Shown here: positions 2,455 to 64,000 of the stretch, in pieces
Layout of the letters: every line of letters begins with the position of its first letter
Numbering within the stretch: the stretch's first letter is position 1
From: a phage
Sequence record: NC_103192.1
DNA: 64,000 bases
Reading direction: 5' to 3' (one strand)
The notes under the pieces: generated by a model
Seen by the model: only the letters and a program-made list of their open reading frames with translations
Told to the model about the DNA's origin: nothing
Databases searched by the model: none
Program-made: the position numbers and the translations under genes

Positions 2455-2650
2455 ATCTCTCTCAGTACTCGATCTGTTTTTCATTTCAAAGATTGGATTT
2501 TCTGAAAATTTTTCTCGATAAATTTCTCAGTACTCGATCTGTTTTTCGTTTTCTGAATTGGATTTTCTGGAAATCGTTCCAGCTCTCGACCTGAAATTTT
2601 TGGGGACGAAATCGATTTTTCGTTTTCAGAAATGGATTTTTAAAATTTCT
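2455..2650. repeat. Tandem direct repeats, about 65-bp unit (ctcagtactcgatctgtttttc...ttggattttctg), 2 good copies plus 1 degenerate
   Basis: Near-identical copies readable at about 2462-2520 and 2527-2585; non-coding. Confidence 0.7.
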
Positions 2651-2789
2651 ATATGGGAATATTTTAGTGGATACTATTTTATAGGAAATTGTTACGGAGG
2701 GTAATTAGCATGCTAACTAAATTTATTAAATGCGAAAAGTTCTCATTTAGAATTTTGAATGATAATCATTCTCGTTTGCAGAATAACGG

Positions 2790-3260
2790 GCACCCCCGGT
2801 GATTGTCTCCCGGCCCCTGTTGCCCCGGCTTGTTATTATAGTATCACACAGGACAAAGAAAGCAAAGACTTTTTGCATAAATTTTTAAATGATAATGATA
2901 ACCGTTCTCATTTTATGCAGCGCCCATCCCCGGTGGTTGTCTCCCCCGTCACCGGTGCCTGCCGTCCTTTCGATAGGTATATTGTGCCACCTGGCGGGGC
3001 CGCTGTCAACACTTTTCAAAAAAAAAAAATTCTAACCTGATGCGCTAACCGTTGCAACCTGGCGGGGCCAGCCTGGCAGGTCCGCGCTATAAAGTAAGCA
3101 GCTACAGAAGAGGTACAAAAATGAAAAGTAATATAATCCCCTGGAAAATGTAGCGATCAATGCCGCTGAAGTTATCGCCCTGGTTGAAAAGGCTATGGCG
3201 GGAGCGTTGGAACATAAAGAAGAGTACGAAAAAATGGTGGTTAACCTGGCGGGGGGCGGC
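2790..3260. repeat. GC-rich repeated motifs (CCGGTGRTTGTCTCCC x2; ACCTGGCGGGG x3) in a non-coding tract
   Basis: Motif copies at about 2796, 2929, 2988, 3055, 3243; GC content far above flanking sequence. Confidence 0.6.
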
Positions 3261-3297
3261 AGGTGGATTCTATCATAAAAATAATTTAAAATAGTCG

Positions 3298-3327
3298 TTG
3301 ACAACAAGGTTAATCATGGTATTATTA
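3298..3327 (+). promoter_or_regulatory. Sigma70-like promoter
   Basis: TTGACA, 17-nt spacer, TATTAT-like -10, about 50 nt upstream of the 3377 gene. Confidence 0.5.
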
Positions 3328-3376
3328 CCCTACAAGGTGAACAACACCACACTAATTAACAGAGAGGATAAAAATC

Positions 3377-3574
3377 ATGAACGCCTACGGAATTAAAGTA
3401 CGTCGCAACACTCGCCAGGTGGTCACCGATCAAATGGTTTGCCGGGTGGATGTAACCATCAACAACGGGCAAGGCCTTTATAAATTCTGTCGCGGTCAGA
3501 GCTATACCCTGCAACAGCTTAATCGTTGCGCCCTGACAAAAGGTCAGATCAACCACTGGTTTAATAAAAAATAA
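3377..3574 (+). CDS. Hypothetical early protein
   Basis: SD agagaggat upstream of ATG; own promoter. Confidence 0.5.
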   Translation: MNAYGIKVRRNTRQVVTDQMVCRVDVTINNGQGLYKFCRGQSYTLQQLNRCALTKGQINHWFNKK

Positions 3575-3577
3575 ATA

Positions 3578-3606
3578 TTGACATGTAGTCTGAAACAAAA
3601 CATACT
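3578..3606 (+). promoter_or_regulatory. Sigma70-like promoter
   Basis: TTGACA, 17 nt, CATACT upstream of the 3639 gene. Confidence 0.5.
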
Positions 3607-3638
3607 GAAAGCACAAAAGGCACTAAGAGGATAAAATC

Positions 3639-4037
3639 ATGAAAACCACAACCTTTAATTTTGACAATGCTGACTTCTCTTTTTCTGATGTTAAAAGCTG
3701 CCGCCGTGATCGCGGATTCTACAAGGCCTATAATCTGGTTGGCCTGGACGATGATAATAATTTGCACGAAGTAGCGGAGATCCGGTACTATGCCGCCGCC
3801 AGCGGTAACACTCACTACTGCGTTTTTTGGATACACGACAACAAGAACAATAAGTACGGTTATACTGGCGGCAAGGCGAGCGGTCACGGTTATGATAAAG
3901 CTAACGCAGCACTTGAGAGCGCATTAAATGCTATGGGGATCACTGCCGACGGCTGGATCTACGAAGAAGGGTTTTTGTCGGCACTTGCTGACCACCTAGG
4001 CTATAAAAAGCACATTGTAACATGTGCCCACGAATAA
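3639..4037 (+). CDS. Hypothetical early protein
   Basis: SD aagaggat; 132 aa. Confidence 0.5.
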   Translation: MKTTTFNFDNADFSFSDVKSCRRDRGFYKAYNLVGLDDDNNLHEVAEIRYYAAASGNTHYCVFWIHDNKNNKYGYTGGKASGHGYDKANAALESALNAMGITADGWIYEEGFLSALADHLGYKKHIVTCAHE

Positions 4038-6342: not shown

Positions 6343-6603
6343 ATGCGTAAATTGAAAAATTTTGATAAGGTCGATGCAGTACTAAATAATTTTTACTACT
6401 GCAATAATAAAGCCGTTTGGTGGCGTGATAGTTCCACCGATAAAGTTAAAGCGCGCTTTCTCCAGGGGCACTGGCAAGGCCGCCCAGTGATTAAAATCTT
6501 GGGGCAATTGGTAGCGTTTAAAAATTGCCGCCGTGTTGATGACGTTGAAGAGATTTTAAACATTTTGCGCCACAATAATTTAAAAAATAGTGTTGACAAG
6601 TAA
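6343..6603 (+). CDS. Hypothetical early protein
   Basis: SD aaggaaggag. Confidence 0.5.
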   Translation: MRKLKNFDKVDAVLNNFYYCNNKAVWWRDSSTDKVKARFLQGHWQGRPVIKILGQLVAFKNCRRVDDVEEILNILRHNNLKNSVDK

Positions 6604-6675
6604 GTATCAATAAGTATACTTAAACACAGGCGGGAAAACTTCCCGCCACTAACAAAGAAAATAGGAGAAAATATC

Positions 6676-7299
6676 ATGACCACCGTTAACATTACCACAG
6701 GTTACAATTTAGCTTTCGACGTGCTGACCGACGAACAAAAAGAAAAAGCCGTTGAAATGGTCCGAGAAAGAGAAGAACACAGCGGGGATAACTTTTTTGC
6801 AGAAAGTGTAATTGAAGACTATAAAGAATATGTCTTTCCAGAGTATGGCCTTGAAGATACCAAGGTACATTGGTCCGGCTTTTGGTGTCAGGGTGACGGC
6901 GCGTCAATCAGTGCGGAAAACGTGGATTTAGAAAAATTCTTGCGTAAAGTCAAGTCTCTGACTAAATTTCGCTCAATTCGTCACTTGTTCGGCACAATGC
7001 ACGATGGCGAACTATCCGCAAGTGTTGAGCGTGATCCATATAGCCGCTATAGCCACGAAAACACTGTAAACGGGTACATCGATACTACATGGCTAGACCT
7101 GACCGCCAAACAAGAAGATAAAGTGGAAGATTTGGAAGAACTGATCACCGAGACGGTACGGGAGCTATCCCGCAAGGTTTACGTAGACTTGGAAGCGGCC
7201 TATTTGGAGCAATTCACATCTGAAAACCTGATCAACCTTATTAAGGACAATGATTGGCGGTTTGATGTAGATGAACATGGCGAGATGACTTTTTCATAA
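6676..7299 (+). CDS. Hypothetical early protein (207 aa)
   Basis: SD aataggag; leader GC hairpin ggcgggaaaacttcccgcc. Confidence 0.5.
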   Translation: MTTVNITTGYNLAFDVLTDEQKEKAVEMVREREEHSGDNFFAESVIEDYKEYVFPEYGLEDTKVHWSGFWCQGDGASISAENVDLEKFLRKVKSLTKFRSIRHLFGTMHDGELSASVERDPYSRYSHENTVNGYIDTTWLDLTAKQEDKVEDLEELITETVRELSRKVYVDLEAAYLEQFTSENLINLIKDNDWRFDVDEHGEMTFS

Positions 7300-7388
7300 A
7301 TAAAGTGTTGCAATAACCTAAAAACCTGCTATATTAAAACTCAAGGGGGCAAGACGTTTGCCCCACACAAAACAAAGAGGAAAACATT

Positions 7389-7769
7389 ATGAAAAACACT
7401 ACTAAAGCTATTGACACCGTTATGTTTAACCTGGTTACCTTTCGCGAGGATATGAAAGATCTTCCACGTGAAACAGTGTGCGATCACATTGAAAACTATC
7501 GCAAACTAATCAAAGAGTTGCCTTTAAAACGTGACCAGTATGCGGCTAACGCTATGCTCAACGCCATGATCAAAAAGATGATTCAGTGTGATTTAACCCT
7601 GGCCTATGATTATGCAGGTGGTCGTTTTGCAGTATATAATCAGCCCGTGCCTGGTATGGGCACCACCGAAGAATTGCACGCGCTCAATCTAAAACAAGAC
7701 GTGTGGGATAGTATGCCTCGCGTGGTGGTGTGGGCAGAAAGCGGAAAGATTTACGGCGATAATTTTTAA
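7389..7769 (+). CDS. Hypothetical early protein
   Basis: SD aaagagg; leader hairpin gggggcaagacgtttgcccc. Confidence 0.5.
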   Translation: MKNTTKAIDTVMFNLVTFREDMKDLPRETVCDHIENYRKLIKELPLKRDQYAANAMLNAMIKKMIQCDLTLAYDYAGGRFAVYNQPVPGMGTTEELHALNLKQDVWDSMPRVVVWAESGKIYGDNF

Positions 7770-7780
7770 TCAAGAACAGA

Positions 7781-7806
7781 CGGCGGCATATTTGCCGCCT
7801 TATTGT
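7781..7806 (+). terminator. Rho-independent terminator
   Basis: cggcggcatatttgccgcc hairpin followed by ttatt. Confidence 0.55.
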
Positions 7807-7835
7807 TAAACAGAACTGCAAAAGAGGTACATAGA

Positions 7836-8207
7836 ATGGAATTTATTATTTTGGCTGTATTAGTTGCCTTGTTTAACGCCTGGATCGCTGGCAAGATGGG
7901 TAGATCCGCCTTTTTATGGTTTATTATATCTATTTTCCTGGGGGTGGTTGCAACTATTGTATTAGTTATCCTTGCAATTGTTGACAAGGGCGATAATAGA
8001 AAGGGTAAAGTATTTTCAGACCTGTACGACGCTCAAACGTTTGTCAACGCATATTATAGTGATCTTCCAGTCTCCCTACGCTGCAGCCTGGCACAACAAG
8101 TTTTCGATGAGGCTAAAACCAGAGATCAAGCCCATGAGATATGTTTAACTGAGGCGGATCGCCTATTTGAGAGGAATAGAAAATATGTGGGCCAACCGTT
8201 TAAATAA
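7836..8207 (+). CDS. Hypothetical membrane protein
   Basis: Two predicted TM segments (IILAVLVALFNAWIA; FLWFIISIFLGVVATIVLVILAIV). Confidence 0.45.
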   Translation: MEFIILAVLVALFNAWIAGKMGRSAFLWFIISIFLGVVATIVLVILAIVDKGDNRKGKVFSDLYDAQTFVNAYYSDLPVSLRCSLAQQVFDEAKTRDQAHEICLTEADRLFERNRKYVGQPFK

Positions 8208-27351: not shown

Positions 27352-27666
27352 CTACCAGGTTACTGTCAAGTAGGCAACCGTATTATTTTTCTCTGGGGAG
27401 ATGCCAACAACATCTACCTGCAGACCTCCTGCCCTTAAATCTCCAACAATGTGCGGGAAGTAATCTGAGAAATGCGAGGGTAGATTTATCGAAAATCCGC
27501 ACCCCAGAAAGCCTGCTAACGCTTTATTTTGTATCTCCCCTACAATCGCATCATAAATGGAGTTAAGCTCGTCAGGGAGCGTTACAGGGCGTTTTAGCGC
27601 CAGCTGGTGTAATTTGTCCTTAGCACTCATTTTCATTTCAGGTCTACCTCTGGGGGTGCCAACCAC
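27352..27666 (-). CDS. Hypothetical protein
   Basis: ORF in array. Confidence 0.4.
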   Translation of the reverse strand: MVGTPRGRPEMKMSAKDKLHQLALKRPVTLPDELNSIYDAIVGEIQNKALAGFLGCGFSINLPSHFSDYFPHIVGDLRAGGLQVDVVGISPEKNNTVAYLTVTW

Positions 27667-28166
27667 ATAAACGGCGGCAAGTCTAAACGGTTTTTCTTAT
27701 CCCACACAAAATATGCATATGCTTGCCCGTCAGTTCTGCCGTTTGATTGAAATGATGGACGCTTAGATATTGTGATCACAGTAGTAGGTGCATTATCAAG
27801 CCACCATTCAAATCTGGCTTTGCTTTCCAGAAAATTAAGACGTAAAAGCATAATAACTACGTCAGCATCTTTCAACGCCTTGTCTACAAACTCACGAGCC
27901 AGGCTGTATGGTGGGTTGGTGATAATACAGTCAACATGGTTGTATTCTGTATTCAGATAGTCAACACCTTCTTGTATTTCTCCCCATGCAGATCCTAACG
28001 GCATACGGGAGTAGAACACACCTGAGGCACTATTCCTGCAAGGCTCTAAGTAGGTCCAGTCTTCTGGGAACGGAATAAGGTCATACAGCCCTTCTGCACA
28101 CCACTCCGGTGTCACATACTCATCGTAGGCGTTACGTTGTTCATCAGGTTTTCTAGCACAAGTCAT
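27633..28166 (-). CDS. Phage-type DNA N6-adenine methyltransferase
   Basis: Catalytic motif IV CIITNPPYS; small size typical of phage Dam-like MTases. Confidence 0.65.
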   Translation of the reverse strand: MTCARKPDEQRNAYDEYVTPEWCAEGLYDLIPFPEDWTYLEPCRNSASGVFYSRMPLGSAWGEIQEGVDYLNTEYNHVDCIITNPPYSLAREFVDKALKDADVVIMLLRLNFLESKARFEWWLDNAPTTVITISKRPSFQSNGRTDGQAYAYFVWDKKNRLDLPPFMWLAPPEVDLK

Positions 28167-28217
28167 GCAAATCTCCAGATCGTAAAAGCCCTCCGAAGAG
28201 GGCTTTAGAATTAATGT

Positions 28218-29267
28218 TTAAGCTTCTTCGACAATTCCTGCACCCAGGATTTTTTCATTGAGCTCTTTTGCTGTTTTAATAATATTGTCCACCAGACGCT
28301 TGCGCGTCTTATCTTTCACCTTAACCTCTTCACCGCCGTTCAGAGTAGTCTTCAATTGAGACAGAATATCCTGAAGTTCAACGACAGAGAATCTCTGCAG
28401 ATCTTCTGAAGTAATCTCACCCAGGGCAATTCTGACGGTCTCGCCACTCTCCATCTGCAGATTCAGGAACACAGTGTGAACATCACCTTTCGAACCACCC
28501 GCTTTTGCAGATTCAACAGCATGAACTAACTCATCTAAAGATGTGCACTGGTGAATCTCCGGAAGACCTGCTTCACCTAACACGCCTTCTTCATCACCTT
28601 TTGCCAGAAGCTTTTTCGGTTTTTGTCCGTTCTGGATGCGTTGTATGTTGCCTTCATCCAGAATAATAGCTCCAGTGCGTGCTGCCAGCTCTTCTCCGTC
28701 CAACCACACTTCGCCACCAGCTGTGATGGATGCGATCTCATCTTCTGTTAGCACCCCACCGTAGTATTTTTCGATCAGGCGTTCAAAACGTTTTTTCCAG
28801 TAGCTGACCTGAGTATTCATGTTCACACCGTTACCATAAGTGCCACCTTGATAGTAGTGGAACATAAACTCTGTGTCCGGAGCCACAGTACGTTCTTTAC
28901 AACCAAGCCATAAGATTGTTCCAGCAGAGCAGCACATCCCTTCAGCATGTGCAACAACGCTTGCCTGAGACTCGCGGAATGCCTGCAGATAGGCCATTGC
29001 AATGTGCACGCAACCCCCAGGGCTATTGATGATCACCCGAATGCTTTCTTCCGGCTGAGCCATACGGATCGTCTGCAGACGAGACATATGATCTTGTAAG
29101 TCTTCCAAATCGTCGATATAAAGAACGTGGTCAACAACAGGTGTTGGGTAGCTGTATGTTTCCATAATACCACCCGGCATACCAAACATTTTATTACTCA
29201 TAGGTTCGAAACCGTTCTGTTTTTCTTTCATGCCGTGTACCATGGTGCTGCGAGGTGTTAAATTCAT
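28218..29267 (-). CDS. ClpP-family serine peptidase with C-terminal extension
   Basis: INSPGG and GMCCSAG match ClpP/S14 oxyanion and active-site Ser motifs; about 130 extra charged C-terminal residues. Confidence 0.6.
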   Translation of the reverse strand: MNLTPRSTMVHGMKEKQNGFEPMSNKMFGMPGGIMETYSYPTPVVDHVLYIDDLEDLQDHMSRLQTIRMAQPEESIRVIINSPGGCVHIAMAYLQAFRESQASVVAHAEGMCCSAGTILWLGCKERTVAPDTEFMFHYYQGGTYGNGVNMNTQVSYWKKRFERLIEKYYGGVLTEDEIASITAGGEVWLDGEELAARTGAIILDEGNIQRIQNGQKPKKLLAKGDEEGVLGEAGLPEIHQCTSLDELVHAVESAKAGGSKGDVHTVFLNLQMESGETVRIALGEITSEDLQRFSVVELQDILSQLKTTLNGGEEVKVKDKTRKRLVDNIIKTAKELNEKILGAGIVEEA

Positions 29268-29327: not shown

Positions 29328-29639
29328 TTATTTAGCAATCACTAGGGAGTACTTACGATTGTCAGAAGCATCACAGCTCAATGATTGCCAGTCTACCACA
29401 TACCAAGTATCATTGTCAACAATTACTTTATCGCCTGTTCTGTAGCAGGTGCTGCTTTCAATAATCCGAGACTCGATAAAGAATCTGTGTCGGCGCTCAC
29501 GTAGCAACGCTAAGTTGATTATATTACCACCACTGTCCTTGATCCACACATTCTTGGATCCTTTATTTGCCAAAATTGTCTCGCCGTTATAGACAAACAG
29601 GCAGTATATTTTATTCAGTCTCTCTTGTATTGTAGCCAT
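29328..29639 (-). CDS. Hypothetical protein
   Basis: ORF in array. Confidence 0.4.
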   Translation of the reverse strand: MATIQERLNKIYCLFVYNGETILANKGSKNVWIKDSGGNIINLALLRERRHRFFIESRIIESSTCYRTGDKVIVDNDTWYVVDWQSLSCDASDNRKYSLVIAK

Positions 29640-29742
29640 ACTATCTCCTTCTCCTTGTCTTGTCCGGTAATAATATCTAAATCTTACCTGTTTGTCAACA
29701 ACTGTTTTAGATATCTAAGGGTGGAATAACCACCCTTCTGTA

Positions 29743-30531
29743 TTACTCGGAAACAGGGGTCCAAATATGATTTGCACGATCCTCAATAAGATTGAGTGCA
29801 ATCTGACGACCCAACCCGGAACGAACAACATCGTCTGGACTATCAAAGCTGATCATTCCAACCTCAGGATCTGGATGACGAGTAAAGAAATCCGTCACCC
29901 ATGCAAGGCCAGATTTACCAGGGATGTCACGTTGGCTATTATCGCCCATAATTACAAGGGTGGCCTGATCAGAGATCCTTGTGATAATTGACAACATTTC
30001 TTCAGGGTTAGTTTGCTGTGCCTCGTCAATCAGGACAAAGCATCGCTCATCGAAACTACGACCACGAATGCTTTCAACCTCACAAATCTCGATACGGCTG
30101 TTCTGACCGTCTCCCAGCATTGCGGCAAAAGCACCTTTGCCAACACGACGACAAATCGTGTCCATCATGCTTCGAAGATAGGGCCACAGTTTCTGCATTG
30201 CATTTCCAGGTTTAAATCCTGAAGTCTTTCCTGTCTGAACGTAAGGACGTGCAACAATGATCTTATCAATCTCGTTCTTACGCAGAAGATCACCTGCATA
30301 TGCAGATGCCATAAACGTCTTACCGGATCCAAACACACCGTTTACAATAATAATCTTACGTGACCCTAGATAATCAAGATACTTTTGCTGCTTTTTATTC
30401 ATTGGTCGGAGAGCTGGAGCGGTGTGCTCTCGTTCGTCAGCAAATTTCTCAGCAGCCTTACGCAGGCGATCAGATTTGCGAGCCTCTCTAGCTTCATCCC
30501 GCATGCGTTTTGTTTCTTTAGCTCGACCCAT
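29743..30531 (-). CDS. phoH: PhoH-like ATPase
   Basis: Walker A GVFGSGKT, Walker B-like VLIDEAQ, charged N-terminal extension. Confidence 0.75.
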   Translation of the reverse strand: MGRAKETKRMRDEAREARKSDRLRKAAEKFADEREHTAPALRPMNKKQQKYLDYLGSRKIIIVNGVFGSGKTFMASAYAGDLLRKNEIDKIIVARPYVQTGKTSGFKPGNAMQKLWPYLRSMMDTICRRVGKGAFAAMLGDGQNSRIEICEVESIRGRSFDERCFVLIDEAQQTNPEEMLSIITRISDQATLVIMGDNSQRDIPGKSGLAWVTDFFTRHPDPEVGMISFDSPDDVVRSGLGRQIALNLIEDRANHIWTPVSE

Positions 30532-31731: not shown

Positions 31732-32667
31732 TCATTTACCGCAGATCTCTTTATACGCTGCTTCCACTATGCTGAACACCTCAGGCCTGTAGTAGAAGAA
31801 TTCGGTGCTACCATTAAATTTTACAGGAAAGTTTATTTTACACTTGTTGAAAATCTCGTGCACAGATTTTTCTACACTTAGCATGTTTTTAGTCGATCCG
31901 CTCCATGTTTTCAATATATGTAAATCATGTAGACCCGCGCCAGATGTATGTGCGCTTTTTAATATCTCATCCTTTCTATTATCAACACGGACGCTCACAC
32001 CTATCTTCATGAGTGTAGGCAATTCTAGATCATCAACCATGATGTAAAGTTTACCACAATCGTGGGATAAAAATCCACTTTTGGTGCATTTAGGACATCC
32101 TCTCCCTCCTAAATGCTTGGTAGGGGATTGACAGAAATCTCCATGGTCTGTGCAAACAATTGTAACCTTGATGTGTGAATTCACATACCTAACTTTAGAG
32201 TAATCATACTTGTTCCCGTGGACAGCCACAGCGTCCTGGATAAACTCTTCAGTGGTCTTTTTCATAGATCCGCCACATCCTGGACAGCCGTGACCACGCT
32301 TAAGGCTACCAGGAGTAGCTGACCATTCGTGGTTGCAAACTTTGCAACGACATAATACTTTATTACACCCTGTAGTGATCTCTTCTAATATTTCAATATA
32401 AGTATTTTTCTTCCCTATGTCCTCAACCCACTTTTCATGAGGTTTGGTTTTACTTTGTGCTATTTTTAGCTTCCTGCATTCAGGACACCCGCATTTTTGA
32501 TTTAGATGTATATCAGGTGTTTGGGCAAAGTGGGTGCCGCAGTGCTTACATATTATCTCCACTTTATCTTTACAGGTTTTATAGTCCACAAGAGAGTAGT
32601 CGTATTTATCACCATGTTTCTCTCTAGCCCTCCCTATAAATTCCTCCGTTGTCAGTCGTCTGGTCAC
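31732..32667 (-). CDS. Free-standing homing-endonuclease-like protein (tandem Zn-ribbon modules, T5orf172/GIY-YIG-like C-terminus)
   Basis: Two repeats of TTEEFI...HG.KYDYS.V.Y...C..HG; C-terminal KLYIMVD...KIGVS block; inserted between nrdG and nrdD. Confidence 0.4.
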   Translation of the reverse strand: MTRRLTTEEFIGRAREKHGDKYDYSLVDYKTCKDKVEIICKHCGTHFAQTPDIHLNQKCGCPECRKLKIAQSKTKPHEKWVEDIGKKNTYIEILEEITTGCNKVLCRCKVCNHEWSATPGSLKRGHGCPGCGGSMKKTTEEFIQDAVAVHGNKYDYSKVRYVNSHIKVTIVCTDHGDFCQSPTKHLGGRGCPKCTKSGFLSHDCGKLYIMVDDLELPTLMKIGVSVRVDNRKDEILKSAHTSGAGLHDLHILKTWSGSTKNMLSVEKSVHEIFNKCKINFPVKFNGSTEFFYYRPEVFSIVEAAYKEICGK

Positions 32668-32734: not shown

Positions 32735-33697
32735 TCAGCAACTACAACTTCCATAGTGCTTCACTCGCTCGATAACTTCCGCTTGCTTACCTGTGTTATA
32801 CGGCCTACTGTTCGGGCTGGAGAGATAGCCAGACACTCTTCGGATCACTGAGATATATTGTTCATCGTGGCATCCGCACGCAGGGCAGCAGAACCCTTTA
32901 GCTGTTGCACTGAACTCACCAGAGAAACCACACTTGAGACATTTATCCACAGGTTGGTTAATACCAAAATACATAATATGTTTATACCCGAAGTCAACAA
33001 GAGCCTCTAAAGCATCTAAGTTGTTTTTCAGATTTGGTGTCTCTATGTACCCAATGTTGCCACCAGAGGAGATCATAGCAAAACCTTCCTCATACTTCCA
33101 CTTATCAAAAGGTGAGCTATTGATCCATACTGGCTGGTGGAAACTGTTGGTGAGGTATTCATGCTCGTGCTTCAACACTTCAGGATATTCACGATCCAGG
33201 CAGGTTGCAGCCTTATAGCATAAACTCTCAGAAGGGGTGCCGTACAAGCTAAATGCTAGTCCACTTTCCTTCTTATATCGCTCACAAGCATCCTTCATGT
33301 GCTGAAGGATTCCAAGAGCTAAAGCCTTGTCACCCTCTCTGCCCAAAATCTGACAGGTTTCATACACACCAATATACCCAATACTGATGGAAGCGTACCC
33401 GTCATAGAAGAGTTTATCGATACTCTCTTCAGGATCCAGGCGAGCAAGAGCTCCTTCACACCACATGATAGGATTCTGCCCGGCCTTGGTGCCTTTCAGA
33501 CGGTTAACCCTTACAAGGTGAGATTCATATGCCAAATCCAGATACTCGTCAAGAACGGCAAAGAAATCAACACCTTCCGTCTTAGCTTTTGCCGCAATCA
33601 TTGGTAGGTTAAGGCTAACAACACCCAAGTTGAATCTGCCAAGGTATTTCTCCTCGCCTGTTACAGGGTCGCTATATTTCGATAAGAAACTTCTACA
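32735..33697 (-). CDS. nrdD: Anaerobic ribonucleotide reductase NrdD, exon 3 (glycyl radical domain)
   Basis: CRSFLS..NLGVVSLNLP and C-terminal RRVSGYL glycyl-radical motif plus Zn-ribbon cysteines align with E. coli NrdD C-terminus. Confidence 0.8.
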   Translation of the reverse strand, partial: CRSFLSKYSDPVTGEEKYLGRFNLGVVSLNLPMIAAKAKTEGVDFFAVLDEYLDLAYESHLVRVNRLKGTKAGQNPIMWCEGALARLDPEESIDKLFYDGYASISIGYIGVYETCQILGREGDKALALGILQHMKDACERYKKESGLAFSLYGTPSESLCYKAATCLDREYPEVLKHEHEYLTNSFHQPVWINSSPFDKWKYEEGFAMISSGGNIGYIETPNLKNNLDALEALVDFGYKHIMYFGINQPVDKCLKCGFSGEFSATAKGFCCPACGCHDEQYISVIRRVSGYLSSPNSRPYNTGKQAEVIERVKHYGSCSC

Positions 33698-34459
33698 CAT
33701 TATGTTCAAGGTGGTTCGCAAGGCCACCCCCGCACCTTTACGTGCTGCTGCATGTCCCCATGCAGATCAGACTATATCTTCACACTTAGTGTGTCTACCA
33801 TTTCGAGTGTCATCAGCTTACACCCTACACCGCTACATTCATCACGGTTAGTCGTTAGGCATTTCGTAACAGAACTCGTAATCATAGTTATTAGGTGCAC
33901 CACGTTTCAGGATAGCAGATATTCTTTTTCTATCTATTCCTAAAACATCAGCACAACATCTCAGACTCTTAAAGTGAATAACCACACCAGTTAATTTGTG
34001 GGTGGCTTTCACCCCGTGACATCTTGTGTAAAAAGCATAACAGTTGTTGTCGTATCCTTCTTGAGTATTGTCTGGGCAAGCTCCCCACTCAAGGTTGTAT
34101 ACGCTGTTATCTTTCCTGTTGTCACCTTTGTGCTTAACATATGGTAAATTGTCTGGATTTGGTAAAAACGCTTCAGCAACAAGTCTGTGAACCCTTAGGC
34201 AAACAGTCTTTTTGTTCTTGCGTATCCTGACAAGACGGTAACCTGTGTTTATCTCTTCCCACGAATGAATAATTCTTTCATTTTCGTATCGGGTGCAATA
34301 AACATTGCCCATCTCGTCAATTTCATAACCTTCAAAATCACGAATTTGTTTTCTCATTTCAGGACTCCTCTTAGTCAGGAGTTCTGTTACGTTTAGCACG
34401 GGATTGTCCGTTCTGGAGTTTCCCCGTTTAGATAGATTTTACATGAGCAGTTATAGTTT
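33698..34459 (-). mobile_element. Group I intron 2 in nrdD (contains HNH endonuclease ORF)
   Basis: Exon 2 ends ...SMG (codon ggt, terminal U), exon 3 resumes CRSF, restoring the conserved PMGCRSF block; 3' end carries AAGATATAGTC P7-like element and a P9 hairpin. Confidence 0.65.
33848..34399 (-). CDS. HNH homing endonuclease (intron-encoded)
   Basis: VKHKGDNRKDNSVYNLEWG HNH_3-type motif; N-terminal FEGYEIDEMGNVY module. Confidence 0.7.
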   Translation of the reverse strand: MLNVTELLTKRSPEMRKQIRDFEGYEIDEMGNVYCTRYENERIIHSWEEINTGYRLVRIRKNKKTVCLRVHRLVAEAFLPNPDNLPYVKHKGDNRKDNSVYNLEWGACPDNTQEGYDNNCYAFYTRCHGVKATHKLTGVVIHFKSLRCCADVLGIDRKRISAILKRGAPNNYDYEFCYEMPND

Positions 34460-60600: not shown

Positions 60601-60675
60601 GCCACCCAGTGCCCTGTTAGCTTAGTGGATAAAGCAGCGGCCTTCTAAGCCGTTGACACTGGTTCGAGTCCAGTA
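60601..60675 (+). tRNA. tRNA-Arg (anticodon TCT)
   Basis: Hand-folded cloverleaf: acceptor GCCCTGT/ACGGGGT, anticodon loop CTTCTAA, T-loop TTCGAGT, CCA encoded. Confidence 0.7.
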
Positions 60676-60815
60676 CGGGGTGCCAAGTTCTTTTTAATGT
60701 AGCTTACTTTAGCAGAGTAAATCTTCGGCAAGTGGCGGTAACCACTTTACCGATACCTCATAGTTAGTGGTGAGAACACTAGCTATTTTAAAAAGAATTT
60801 AAATATTAGTATTTA

Positions 60816-60903
60816 GGTGAGTTAATTCCGTAGGGGTAGCGGGGCAGACTGTAAATCTGTTATCATTGCGATTCGGGTGGTTCGACTCCATCACTCACCA
60901 CCA
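60816..60903 (+). tRNA. tRNA-Tyr (anticodon GTA), long variable arm
   Basis: Acceptor GGTGAGT/ACTCACC, anticodon arm CAGACTGTAAATCTG as in E. coli tRNA-Tyr, T-loop TTCGACT, CCA. Confidence 0.7.
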
Positions 60904-61017
60904 AATTTATATTTTTAAATGCATAAATCATACAGATAATGGCATTGATATTTATCGTCGTTTATACTAGTCACTAACTGCTCGAAAATCAGTGTCATTA
61001 TCAGTATTGTTTATAAA

Positions 61018-61108
61018 AGAGGGTAGGGAGCAATGGTGCTCAAGCGGTCTTGAAAACCGTCCCGTTGAGGATGACTCGATGATGGTTCGATTCCATTATC
61101 CTCTGCCA
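61018..61108 (+). tRNA. tRNA-Ser (anticodon TGA), long variable arm
   Basis: Acceptor AGAGGGT/ATCCTCT, anticodon arm CGGTCTTGAAAACCG, T-loop TTCGATT, CCA. Confidence 0.7.
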
Positions 61109-61206
61109 TATTGTTGACTATGTAATTAAGCGAAAGCCGGAAGCAGAACCGGATTATCAAATGTTACAGTCGTCATCGCCGACTAGCAACATGGTCAACA
61201 TACTGA

Positions 61207-61305
61207 GCTAGGTAAGCCCTTTGGCAAGGGCGAGGATTTTTAATCCTGAAAATAGACGAGGTAGTCGTTGAATACATAGGTGGTTCGATTCCATCACCTA
61301 GCACC
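61207..61305 (+). tRNA. Atypical tRNA-like element (type II shape, irregular anticodon arm)
   Basis: Acceptor GCTAGGT/ACCTAGC, D-arm GCCC/GGGC, T-loop TTCGATT, long variable arm; anticodon region is either a 5-nt loop or a 4-bp stem with TTTTTAA loop; no CCA. Confidence 0.35.
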
Positions 61306-61310
61306 TTTTT

Positions 61311-61386
61311 GCTGATGTAGCACAATTGGTAGTGCAATTGATTTGTAATCAATAGGTTGCAGGTTCAAGTCCTGCCATCAGCACCA
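61311..61386 (+). tRNA. tRNA-Thr (anticodon TGT)
   Basis: Acceptor GCTGATG/CATCAGC, anticodon loop TTTGTAA, T-loop TTCAAGT, CCA. Confidence 0.75.
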
Positions 61387-61387
61387 T

Positions 61388-61462
61388 GGCCCTGTAGCTG
61401 GAAGGTTCAAGCAAGCGACTCATAATCGCCAGACGGTGGTTCAATTCCACCCAGGGCCACCA
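61388..61462 (+). tRNA. tRNA-Met or Ile2 (anticodon CAT)
   Basis: Acceptor GGCCCTG/CAGGGCC, anticodon loop CTCATAA, T-loop TTCAATT, CCA. Confidence 0.75.
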
Positions 61463-61473
61463 AATAATAAATA

Positions 61474-61550
61474 CTCCGCGTAGCTCAGCTTGGTAGAGTG
61501 CCTGATTTGGGATCAGGAGGTCGAGTGTTCGAATCACTCCGTGGAGACCA
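61474..61550 (+). tRNA. tRNA-Pro (anticodon TGG)
   Basis: Acceptor CTCCGCG/CGTGGAG, anticodon loop TTTGGGA, T-loop TTCGAAT, CCA. Confidence 0.75.
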
Positions 61551-62370: not shown

Positions 62371-62654
62371 GAGTTGCTACACTATTTATTGTGTGCTTGT
62401 TATTATGTGGGTGTGCAACCAGTGTTGAGAAAGAATACAAGATTGACCCTCCAGATGTAGGAAGGTTGATTGTTAAACCCCCAGAAGGTGCTATGAAACC
62501 ACCTGCTAAAGCTATGCCTTTGAAGAAAGGTGCGCCAGATGCAGTAAATTCTGGCATTATGAGGGATAATAATCTGTCTTGTAGCAATGATAGAGCTAAA
62601 TTGATCATTTTGCAAGACTATATTAGAACACTTTTTCCAAAGGAGAGAGGTTAA
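62367..62654 (+). CDS. o-spanin-like lipoprotein (Rz1-like)
   Basis: Signal with lipobox-like LLCGCAT; proline-rich mature part. Confidence 0.55.
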   Translation: MRVATLFIVCLLLCGCATSVEKEYKIDPPDVGRLIVKPPEGAMKPPAKAMPLKKGAPDAVNSGIMRDNNLSCSNDRAKLIILQDYIRTLFPKERG

Positions 62655-63079
62655 TGTCTAAGATTTACGGACCGTGTTCTGAAAAGCAGAAGATGATCCT
62701 CGAAAACGATGCAGATATTTTGGTAATCGGCGGTGCCGCAGGGTCTGGCAAGTCGTTCCTCTTGCAGTTGATGCCACTTAAAATTATTGATGACCCCCAC
62801 AGCTCTGTGGTTATGTTCCGAAGAACAACCCCACAGTTGGAAGGTGAGGGTGGGCTATGGCCTAAAGCAGTAGCTATTTATAGCGATCTGCCTGAAAACA
62901 TTAAGCCAAAGTTCAGAGAGAAGGATCATAAGTTCATTTTCCCACGGTTTGATCCGGGCACTGGCAAGTGGGATAGAAGCAAAAAGGGAGCTGTTGTAAA
63001 ATACTGCCACATGGAGTATGTACAAGATAAGCTTAACCATCAAGGGCTTGAGTACACCATGGTTTGCTTTGATGAGGGT
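62654..63079 (+). CDS. terL: Terminase large subunit, exon 1 (ATPase N-terminal part)
   Basis: Walker A GGAAGSGKS, Walker B MVCFDEG; reading frame then hits a stop where the intron begins. Confidence 0.7.
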
Positions 63080-63398: not shown

Positions 63399-63716
63399 AC
63401 GCAATTCGAATGGGAGCAGATAGACTACCTAATGTCTCGTCTGCGATCTCAGTCAAAGTATCCATCAAGAATGGTTATCAGCTGTAACCCCGACTCAGAA
63501 CACATGCTTGCCAAACTGATTAGGTGGTGGTTGGACGATGAAGGGTATCCAGATCCGGAGAAATGTGGTAAGAAAAGATATTTTATCCGACGCGACGGTG
63601 AATTTATCTGGGGAGACTCTAAGGAAGAGTTAATAGAGAAATACACCACGGTTAACGGACTAGGTGTGGAGATCAAGCCAAGACCGTTGTCATTCTCGTT
63701 CATAGGCGCAACCATT
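63399..63716 (+). CDS. terL: Terminase large subunit, exon 2
   Basis: Continues the ATPase domain (RMVISCNPD region) in frame after the intron; ends at a stop followed by a second intron. Confidence 0.6.
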
Positions 63717-64000
63717 AAATGATAGTGGCTTCGTGCAGAAATGCACGTCGAATAACTTCGTTAATTGCTGGAAAATCCTTTATGAAAGGACAATCAGCAG
63801 CCAAGCCTGAATATTCAGGAAGGTTCAACGACTATCCTGAGAGGGAGTAGGGCGCAAGCTTATGGCGCTCGAAAAGCGAAGCACCCTGAGATGGGTGGTG
63901 ATATAGTCTACTCTGCATGGTAACATGCAGCGGCACGTAATGGTGCGGAGGGTGGTGTTGCGACCACCCTTGAATATAAGGATTCGATAATCCTGTCTGC
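63717..64000 (+). mobile_element. Second group I intron in terminase gene (3' end beyond window)
   Basis: GTTCAACGACTA and GATATAGTC elements and a P9 hairpin closely resembling intron 1 and the nrdD intron. Confidence 0.55.

Follow-up and report, generated by a model that had tools for sequence, protein, structure and literature searches.

The ClpP-like gene and its surroundings

The window analyzed here is a stretch of 64,000 nucleotides of phage DNA (NC_103192.1). On its minus strand it carries a gene for a ClpP-like serine protease that a sequence-only reading had placed between a methyltransferase gene and a PhoH gene. This placement is correct, with one small gene of 103 amino acids intervening on the PhoH side. 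The genes at this locus are:

27633..28166, minus strand: DNA N6-adenine methyltransferase-like gene, the downstream neighbor (phrog_799, 8.1e-67)
28218..29267, minus strand: ClpP-like serine protease gene, ortholog of rV5 gp122 (349 amino acids plus stop codon, ATG start)
29328..29639, minus strand: small open reading frame of 103 amino acids, ortholog of rV5 gp121 (phrog_5456), between the PhoH and protease genes
29743..30531, minus strand: PhoH-like P-loop ATPase gene, the upstream neighbor (PF02562, 3.6e-47)

The protease gene has a ribosome-binding site, AAGGA, located 6 nt 5' of the ATG. Matches of the methyltransferase-like gene to the Pfam families EcoRI_methylase and Dam stay below the respective cut-offs.

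This region of the window is 98-99% identical to the genomes of more than 100 rV5-like Vequintavirus phages, and the product of 28218..29267 is 100% identical to a protein of phage JES2013 that is annotated as a 'putative ClpP ATP-dependent protease subunit'. The rV5 counterpart, gp122, was entered in 2013 as a 'ClpP (ATP-dependent) protease subunit' of 349 amino acids (PMC3606486 Table S3). Furthermore, the protein finds a full-length match in phrog_5410, the long 'ATP-dependent protease' family of the Vequintavirinae (E 4.9e-155; amino acids 24-345 against profile positions 4-322 of 323). Because this profile matches end to end, the C-terminal extension is part of an existing, catalogued family. 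The gene is thus already catalogued for rV5-like E. coli phages under the name 'ClpP protease', and at this level the result is an accurate, unexceptional annotation. About 19 unannotated records labelled 'Campylobacter phage' (MG0656xx; among them hits H1, H2, H7 and H8) are likewise 98-99% identical to E. coli rV5-like phages in this region; these records are probably mislabelled as to host, or else the phages may stem from co-isolated E. coli.

ClpP-like genes outside the capsid module are present in hundreds of lytic phage genomes, including those of therapy candidates of the rV5, ICP1, T5 and PAK_P1 types, and their usual label is "ATP-dependent Clp protease". Our literature searches yielded no functional work on a non-structural ClpP-like protein from any phage.

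Fold and catalytic residues of the protease domain

The assignment of the protein to the ClpP family of peptidases, already proposed from the sequence alone, is borne out by profile searches and by structural modeling. The relevant features of the protease domain are:

28632..29135, minus strand: ClpP-fold protease domain, amino acids 45-212 (AlphaFold2 pLDDT >90; best Foldseek matches are ClpP structures)
28926-28928, minus strand: codon of Ser114 (checked)
28857-28859, minus strand: codon of His137 (checked)
28710-28712, minus strand: codon of Glu186 (checked)

Amino acids 59-168 match the Pfam family CLP_protease (PF00574) with an E-value of 2.1e-12 and 47.7 bits against a cut-off of 20.2, the match being partial (profile positions 32-143 of 182). 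An AlphaFold2 model computed from an alignment of 20 sequences exhibits a ClpP fold, including the helix of the handle region. Foldseek comparison with the PDB returned ClpP structures for all of the best 50 matches, with E-values of about 1e-9 and target TM values between 0.62 and 0.74 (about 3e-10 and about 0.7 for the best ones). Judged by this model, the protein belongs at the fold level to the ClpP/peptidase S14 superfamily.

Ser114, His137 and the oxyanion residue Gly85 are invariant among 20 family members, and also when ten diverse phage homologs and E. coli ClpP are considered. The numbering of the E. coli sequence used in these alignments yields S97, H122 and D171, and alignments with ClpP chains from the PDB agree. 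The third position of the triad, Asp171 in ClpP, is occupied by Glu186 in the protein studied here, by Gln in most members of the long family, and by Asp or Glu in the short phage homologs. Since the Ser114-His137 pair is kept and Glu186 stands at the position of the ClpP Asp, the protein is probably active as a serine protease. The chemistry may differ from that of ClpP in view of the Gln found in most family members.

A catalytically dead, ClpR-like protein that serves as a scaffold or regulator would be in keeping with the lack of conservation of the canonical Asp, and ClpP-like pseudo-proteases do exist in plastids (PMC6508832). Nevertheless, we consider this extremely improbable given the strict conservation of Ser114, His137 and Gly85 in all homologs examined and the retention of an acidic residue at position 186 in the protein under study.

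Relation to cellular ClpP and to the host unfoldases

The docking pocket of E. coli ClpP for the IGF/IGL loops is made up of L23, L48, F49, A52, Y60, Y62, F82, I90, M92, F112, L114 and L189 (bioRxiv 10.1101/820209). Seven of these residues are replaced in the phage protein: Y60 by R77, Y62 by I79, F82 by E99, I90 by H107, M92 by E109, F112 by T127, and L114 by A129. L203 is the remaining mapped pocket position, and L48 and F49 of ClpP fall into a deletion of five residues. R77, E99, H107 and E109 are invariant across the family. The mapping is the same whether a MAFFT alignment or an independently made profile alignment is used. Read from these alignments, and not from the structure of an assembled ring, the hydrophobic pocket for the docking of ClpX/ClpA is not conserved and charged or polar residues take its place; the protein therefore probably does not use these host motors. 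With invariant charged residues in the pocket, the 'ATP-dependent' label is doubtful and unsupported, and, the unfoldase docking site being absent, the database designation "ATP-dependent Clp protease" is probably wrong.

The N-terminal end of the protein also departs from ClpP:

29136..29267, minus strand: N-terminal 44 residues, predicted to be disordered (pLDDT <50 for amino acids 1-42)

This unrelated segment replaces the axial-loop and helix-A region of ClpP. It contains a conserved motif, FG..PG...YSYP, in which F28 and G29 are nearly invariant and Y40 and P41 are invariant.

The equivalog-level HMMs for ClpP (TIGR00493 and the PRK models) all score far below their thresholds, with 33-39 bits against cut-offs of 228-361; the TIGR00493 clpP model, for instance, yields 33.2 bits against 308.6. 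Higher scores are reached with models of phage head-maturation proteases, namely 60.4 bits for the NCBIfam family Clp_rel_HeadMat (NF045542), which is still below its cut-off of 120, and up to 78.9 bits for the head-protease PHROGs (phrog_1684). In the comparison of Peptidase_S14 with prohead protease families that the sequence-only reading had proposed, the threshold of PF00574 is passed and that of NF045542 is not. HMM scores place the gp122 ortholog at a greater distance from cellular ClpP than from the ClpP-related head proteases of phages, and we conclude that it is a member of the phage branch of ClpP-fold proteases.

These data bear directly on the notion that the protein acts as a canonical ClpP subunit, which would either dock to host ClpX or ClpA or mix into host ClpP rings and in this way form an ATP-dependent protease of altered specificity. 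The ClpP fold, the passed Pfam CLP_protease threshold, the helix of the handle region and the widespread 'ATP-dependent protease' annotation can all be cited in its favor. We nevertheless judge it unlikely when the exchange of seven pocket residues, in four cases for an invariant charged or polar residue, the unrelated axial-loop region with its predicted disorder, the low scores of all equivalog ClpP models, and an identity to ClpP of only about 20% are taken into account. The loss of the docking pocket and the HMM scores nearer to the head proteases suggest instead that the protein works without a host AAA+ unfoldase, as prohead proteases do.

The linker and the C-terminal domain

The sequence-only reading had noted about 130 extra, charged residues at the C-terminus. 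Approximately 137 residues (amino acids 213-349) indeed lie beyond the ClpP fold; they comprise a charged linker and a terminal domain of net acidic character. Two segments can be distinguished:

28476..28631, minus strand: variable charged linker, amino acids 213-264 (low pLDDT at amino acids 223-239 and 259-262)
28221..28475, minus strand: family-specific C-terminal domain, amino acids 265-349 (about 85 residues; a β-hairpin followed by helices)

The linker varies between 27 and 57 amino acids across the family and contains a clade-specific helix (amino acids 244-257). In the C-terminal domain, F293, E297 and R322 are invariant. Of 13 members whose domains were compared, 12 have a net charge between -3 and -18 and one is neutral. 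A profile of this domain searched against 1.84 billion representative proteins produced only seven matches: five members or fragments of the ClpP-like family, a 53-aa fragment (P0043), and an LRR-repeat artefact. No relatives outside its own family were thus detected in this search. A SAP/HeH-like DNA-binding motif was considered and rejected; none of the matches to the Rho N-terminal domain, the SAP-like domain of MANF and Pfam HeH (E 0.1) reaches significance, and most members have a strongly acidic domain. This net acidic character argues against nucleic-acid binding.

The C-terminal domain is probably a protein-binding or targeting module. Carried on a flexible linker, it would attach to a substrate or another partner protein during infection and bring the protease near its substrates, as happens in prohead proteases. 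A more daring and rather unlikely idea is that the acidic domain serves as a bait, possibly as a DNA mimic, that recruits basic DNA-binding proteins of the host, such as nucleoid proteins or restriction and defense nucleases, to a ClpP-fold protease independent of an ATPase. If this were true, the protease and the short homologs found in ICP1, T5-like phages, Pakpunavirus and others would represent a widespread and unrecognized class of phage proteases for host takeover or counter-defense.

Neighboring genes and transcription

The gene order around the protease gene is well conserved in Vequintavirinae-like loci, where PhoH is followed by a gp121-like open reading frame, the protease gene and then the methyltransferase gene. 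Among 17 related loci, the methyltransferase gene lies directly downstream of the protease gene in all, and PhoH lies upstream in 16. A gp121-like reading frame (102-107 amino acids) precedes the protease gene in all nine loci inspected in this respect. The gp121 ortholog has no match in Pfam, the PDB or PADLOC; it could be a partner or an inhibitor of the protease, or an unrelated passenger. PADLOC also revealed no homology to defense systems for the protease or for the other small neighbors.

In other genera of the Vequintavirinae, a DprA-like gene (about 224 amino acids, motif YTGVGSRETP) and a conserved reading frame of about 160 amino acids are located between PhoH and the protease gene (loci L013-L025 at about 6500-8000; locus L008 at 2575-3953). 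In several of these loci, the stop codon of the protease gene abuts or overlaps the start of the methyltransferase gene, which suggests translational coupling; the rV5-like phages lack this arrangement. The methyltransferase gene is always followed by a small conserved reading frame of 92-117 amino acids with the motif YLPHIVGDLRxGGF (27352-27666 of the window, minus strand; homologs in loci L009-L025) that has no family match.

The nrdD gene for the anaerobic ribonucleotide reductase seems to be interrupted: the reading frame 32735-33727 (minus strand) covers only positions 263-562 of the NRDD profile, and the reading frame just upstream, 33848-34399 (minus strand), has a weak match to HNH_3 (E 5e-4, below the cut-off). 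This interruption is probably an intron with a homing endonuclease; in the genome of phage AlexBoehm, nrdD is annotated as a two-piece join. Between nrdG and nrdD lies a reading frame of 311 amino acids (31732-32667, minus strand) with T5orf172 and DUF4379 (treble-clef zinc finger) matches. AlexBoehm does not have it at this position, and it resembles a free-standing insertion of the homing-endonuclease type.

Two transcription signals flank the gp121 and gp122 orthologs:

29670..29698, minus strand: sigma-70-type promoter-like site TTGACA-17-TATTAT, upstream of gp121 (11 of 12 consensus positions)
28183..28203, minus strand: intrinsic terminator hairpin GCCCTCTTCGGAGGGC followed by TTTTA, 15 nt past the stop codon of the protease gene

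They correspond to the predicted promoter P121 and the terminator t122 (-14.9 kcal/mol) of rV5 (rV5 Table S4). A further hairpin can be read in the sequence after PhoH; it precedes the promoter-like site, which is then followed by gp121. As they lie between a predicted promoter and a terminator, gp121 and gp122 are probably co-transcribed. The late-promoter motif of rV5 was found by the authors of that study only in front of structural genes. No exact copy of its core is present in the window, including the intergenic regions 5' of gp121 and gp122; one copy with a single mismatch is located inside gp121 (29520-29529).

By these signals, gp121 and gp122 look like a two-gene unit of predicted early or middle expression. 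The assigned timing is based on the predicted promoter for the rV5-like phage itself and on transcriptome evidence for a homolog whose protease domain is about 36% identical; we found no Vequintavirus transcriptome in the literature. We envisage that the host sigma-70-type promoter and the terminator would delimit a transcription unit made up of gp121 and the protease gene, situated within a presumably early/middle block of genes for nucleotide metabolism and replication.

The proximity of PhoH raises the question of whether the protease and this ATPase, perhaps together with gp121, form a new two-component ATP-dependent protease. In the Vequintavirinae, PhoH is found zero to three genes upstream of the protease gene (in the 16 loci mentioned above); it is also near the homolog in ICP1, and in Otagovirus UNO-G1W1 the reading frames for PhoH and the protease overlap by 8 nt. 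This proximity is not universal, since the two genes are not adjacent in the Pakpunavirus, T5-like and N4-like examples, and in the window itself the hairpin and the new promoter separate PhoH from the gp121-gp122 unit. The myovirus lineages share ancestry, and the synteny may thus be inherited rather than functional. A ring-unfoldase function is not known for PhoH-family proteins. A functional coupling to PhoH was therefore not adopted, the synteny being real yet not universal and confounded by shared ancestry, and we regard such a two-component protease as very unlikely.

Does the protein mature the phage head?

The sequence-only reading had viewed phage ClpP-like proteins as usually being prohead proteases, and had considered the protein a possibly displaced enzyme of this type. 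The first point is half true: ClpP-related head proteases are indeed found in phages, but the phrog_1827/phrog_5410 'ATP-dependent protease' group is large, is separate from the prohead proteases and lies outside the head modules. The second point is not supported by the genomic evidence.

In the near-identical genome of AlexBoehm, the genes for terminase, portal, prohead protease, scaffold, decoration protein and a major capsid protein of the lambda-E type lie together, and the prohead protease is of the Peptidase_S78_2/XkdF type (8.7e-18), its gene being flanked by those for portal and scaffold. JES2013 possesses the same head block at 53-60 kb and its ClpP-like gene at 89 kb, and in both genomes the head module is about 30 kb away from the ClpP-like gene. 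The predicted capsid protease of ICP1 (gp125) is of the same XkdF type and is transcribed late together with the capsid genes. No head gene was found within 8 kb of the ClpP-like gene in any of 17 related IMG/VR loci. In the window, the gene is, as had been noted, far from the terminase gene: about 33 kb separate it from the start of the large-subunit gene at 62654, which is encoded on the opposite strand.

The gene for the large terminase subunit is itself split, with exons at 62654-63079 (amino acids 1-142) and 63399-63716 (amino acids 143-248) on the plus strand, separated by about 320 nt with stop codons, and it continues beyond position 64000; the split agrees with the description of the rV5 terminase gene as intron-containing and made up of three segments. 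A cluster of six tRNA-like genes (60611-61550, plus strand) precedes the genes for spanin and terminase; they are called as Arg-TCT, Ser-TGA, Thr-TGT, Met-CAT, Pro-TGG and an odd one of 99 nt with a four-base anticodon.

Virion proteomes point in the same direction as the gene arrangement. In the table of rV5 virion proteins determined by mass spectrometry, a shallow analysis that confirmed only six proteins, neither gp122 peptides nor its mass are present. The virion proteome of the Certrevirus CB7 (26 proteins) includes the head-module protease and contains no open reading frame from the region in which CR8, a relative in the genus, has its ClpP-like gene, the position being taken from CR8. 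A distant homolog, ORF45 of the T5-like phage BF23, was weakly detected in purified virions (3 peptides) and listed in that study as 'function unknown'; since the non-structural enzyme DHFR was found in these virions as well, carry-over of ORF45 from the lysate is plausible. [quoted passage not shown]

The product of 28218..29267 is almost certainly not the capsid-maturation enzyme. It might still be an auxiliary morphogenetic or virion protease, either packaged itself or acting as a second maturation protease on head, tail or internal proteins, with the C-terminal domain as a capsid- or scaffold-targeting module comparable to those of prohead proteases and lambda C/Nu3. Head-maturation proteases are its best non-self matches in the PHROG and NCBIfam collections, the succession of a protease domain and a helical C-terminal part resembles protease-scaffold fusions, and BF23 ORF45 was recovered with virions. 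We deem this improbable, because the head module has its own XkdF-type protease and a separate scaffold, the gene belongs to another transcription block with a sigma-70-type promoter and lies some 30 kb from the head genes, neither the rV5 nor the CB7 virion proteome contains the protein, and the BF23 finding has the alternative explanation given above.

Proposed role of the gp122 protease

The explanation that we favor, with moderate confidence, is that the gp122 ortholog is a non-structural and probably active ClpP-fold protease that functions independently of host unfoldases and possesses a family-specific targeting domain. The rV5-like phages would accordingly have a second, non-structural ClpP-fold serine protease besides their capsid-maturation enzyme. 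Our analysis hence points to a targeted intracellular protease. A role against host or defense proteins, which the sequence-only reading had offered as its alternative, is possible and is compatible with all findings; neither PADLOC nor the literature revealed a link to defense. Should the target be a host regulator or a defense protein, the enzyme would be a new type of phage takeover or anti-defense enzyme.

Comparison with known systems

With cellular ClpP (family S14, e.g., that of E. coli), the phage protein shares the fold, the nucleophilic Ser, the general-base His, the oxyanion Gly and the handle helix. It differs in its low overall identity (about 20%), in the replacement of the ClpP Asp by Glu or Gln, in the lack of conservation of the N-terminal gating loops and of the pocket for IGF/IGL docking, and in its additional C-terminal part of 137 amino acids.

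The best-scoring characterized relatives are the ClpP-related phage head-maturation proteases (NF045542; phrog_1684, 94, 2976 and 133). These enzymes have a ClpP fold, presumably act without an AAA+ partner, and often carry C-terminal scaffold or targeting parts. The gp122 ortholog, in contrast, scores below the cut-off of the NF045542 family, is encoded outside the head module and was not found in virions, and another protease fills the head role in this type of phage.

The short non-structural relatives of phrog_1827 comprise ICP1 gp211, T5.042 and BF23 ORF45, and the homologs from Pakpunavirus, Otagovirus and an N4-like Alteromonas phage. They share the ClpP-fold domain, the Ser-His pair, an Asp or Glu at the third position, and likewise replaced pocket residues. 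Their genes, too, are located outside the head module: nucleotide-metabolism genes surround them in ICP1, Otagovirus, Pakpunavirus and the N4-like phage, and in the T5-like phage a nucleotide kinase gene and lysis genes lie next to the homolog. In ICP1 and the T5-like phages, a dedicated head protease coexists with them. They differ from the gp122 ortholog in that their identity to it amounts to 25-36% only and most of them have no C-terminal extension; ICP1 has one of similar length, which the C-terminal profile does not detect.

Finally, in comparison with rV5 gp122 and the JES2013 protein there is no substantive difference: the identity is 97-100%, the length of 349 amino acids is equal, and the neighboring genes, P121 and t122 are the same, the annotation itself dating from 2013.
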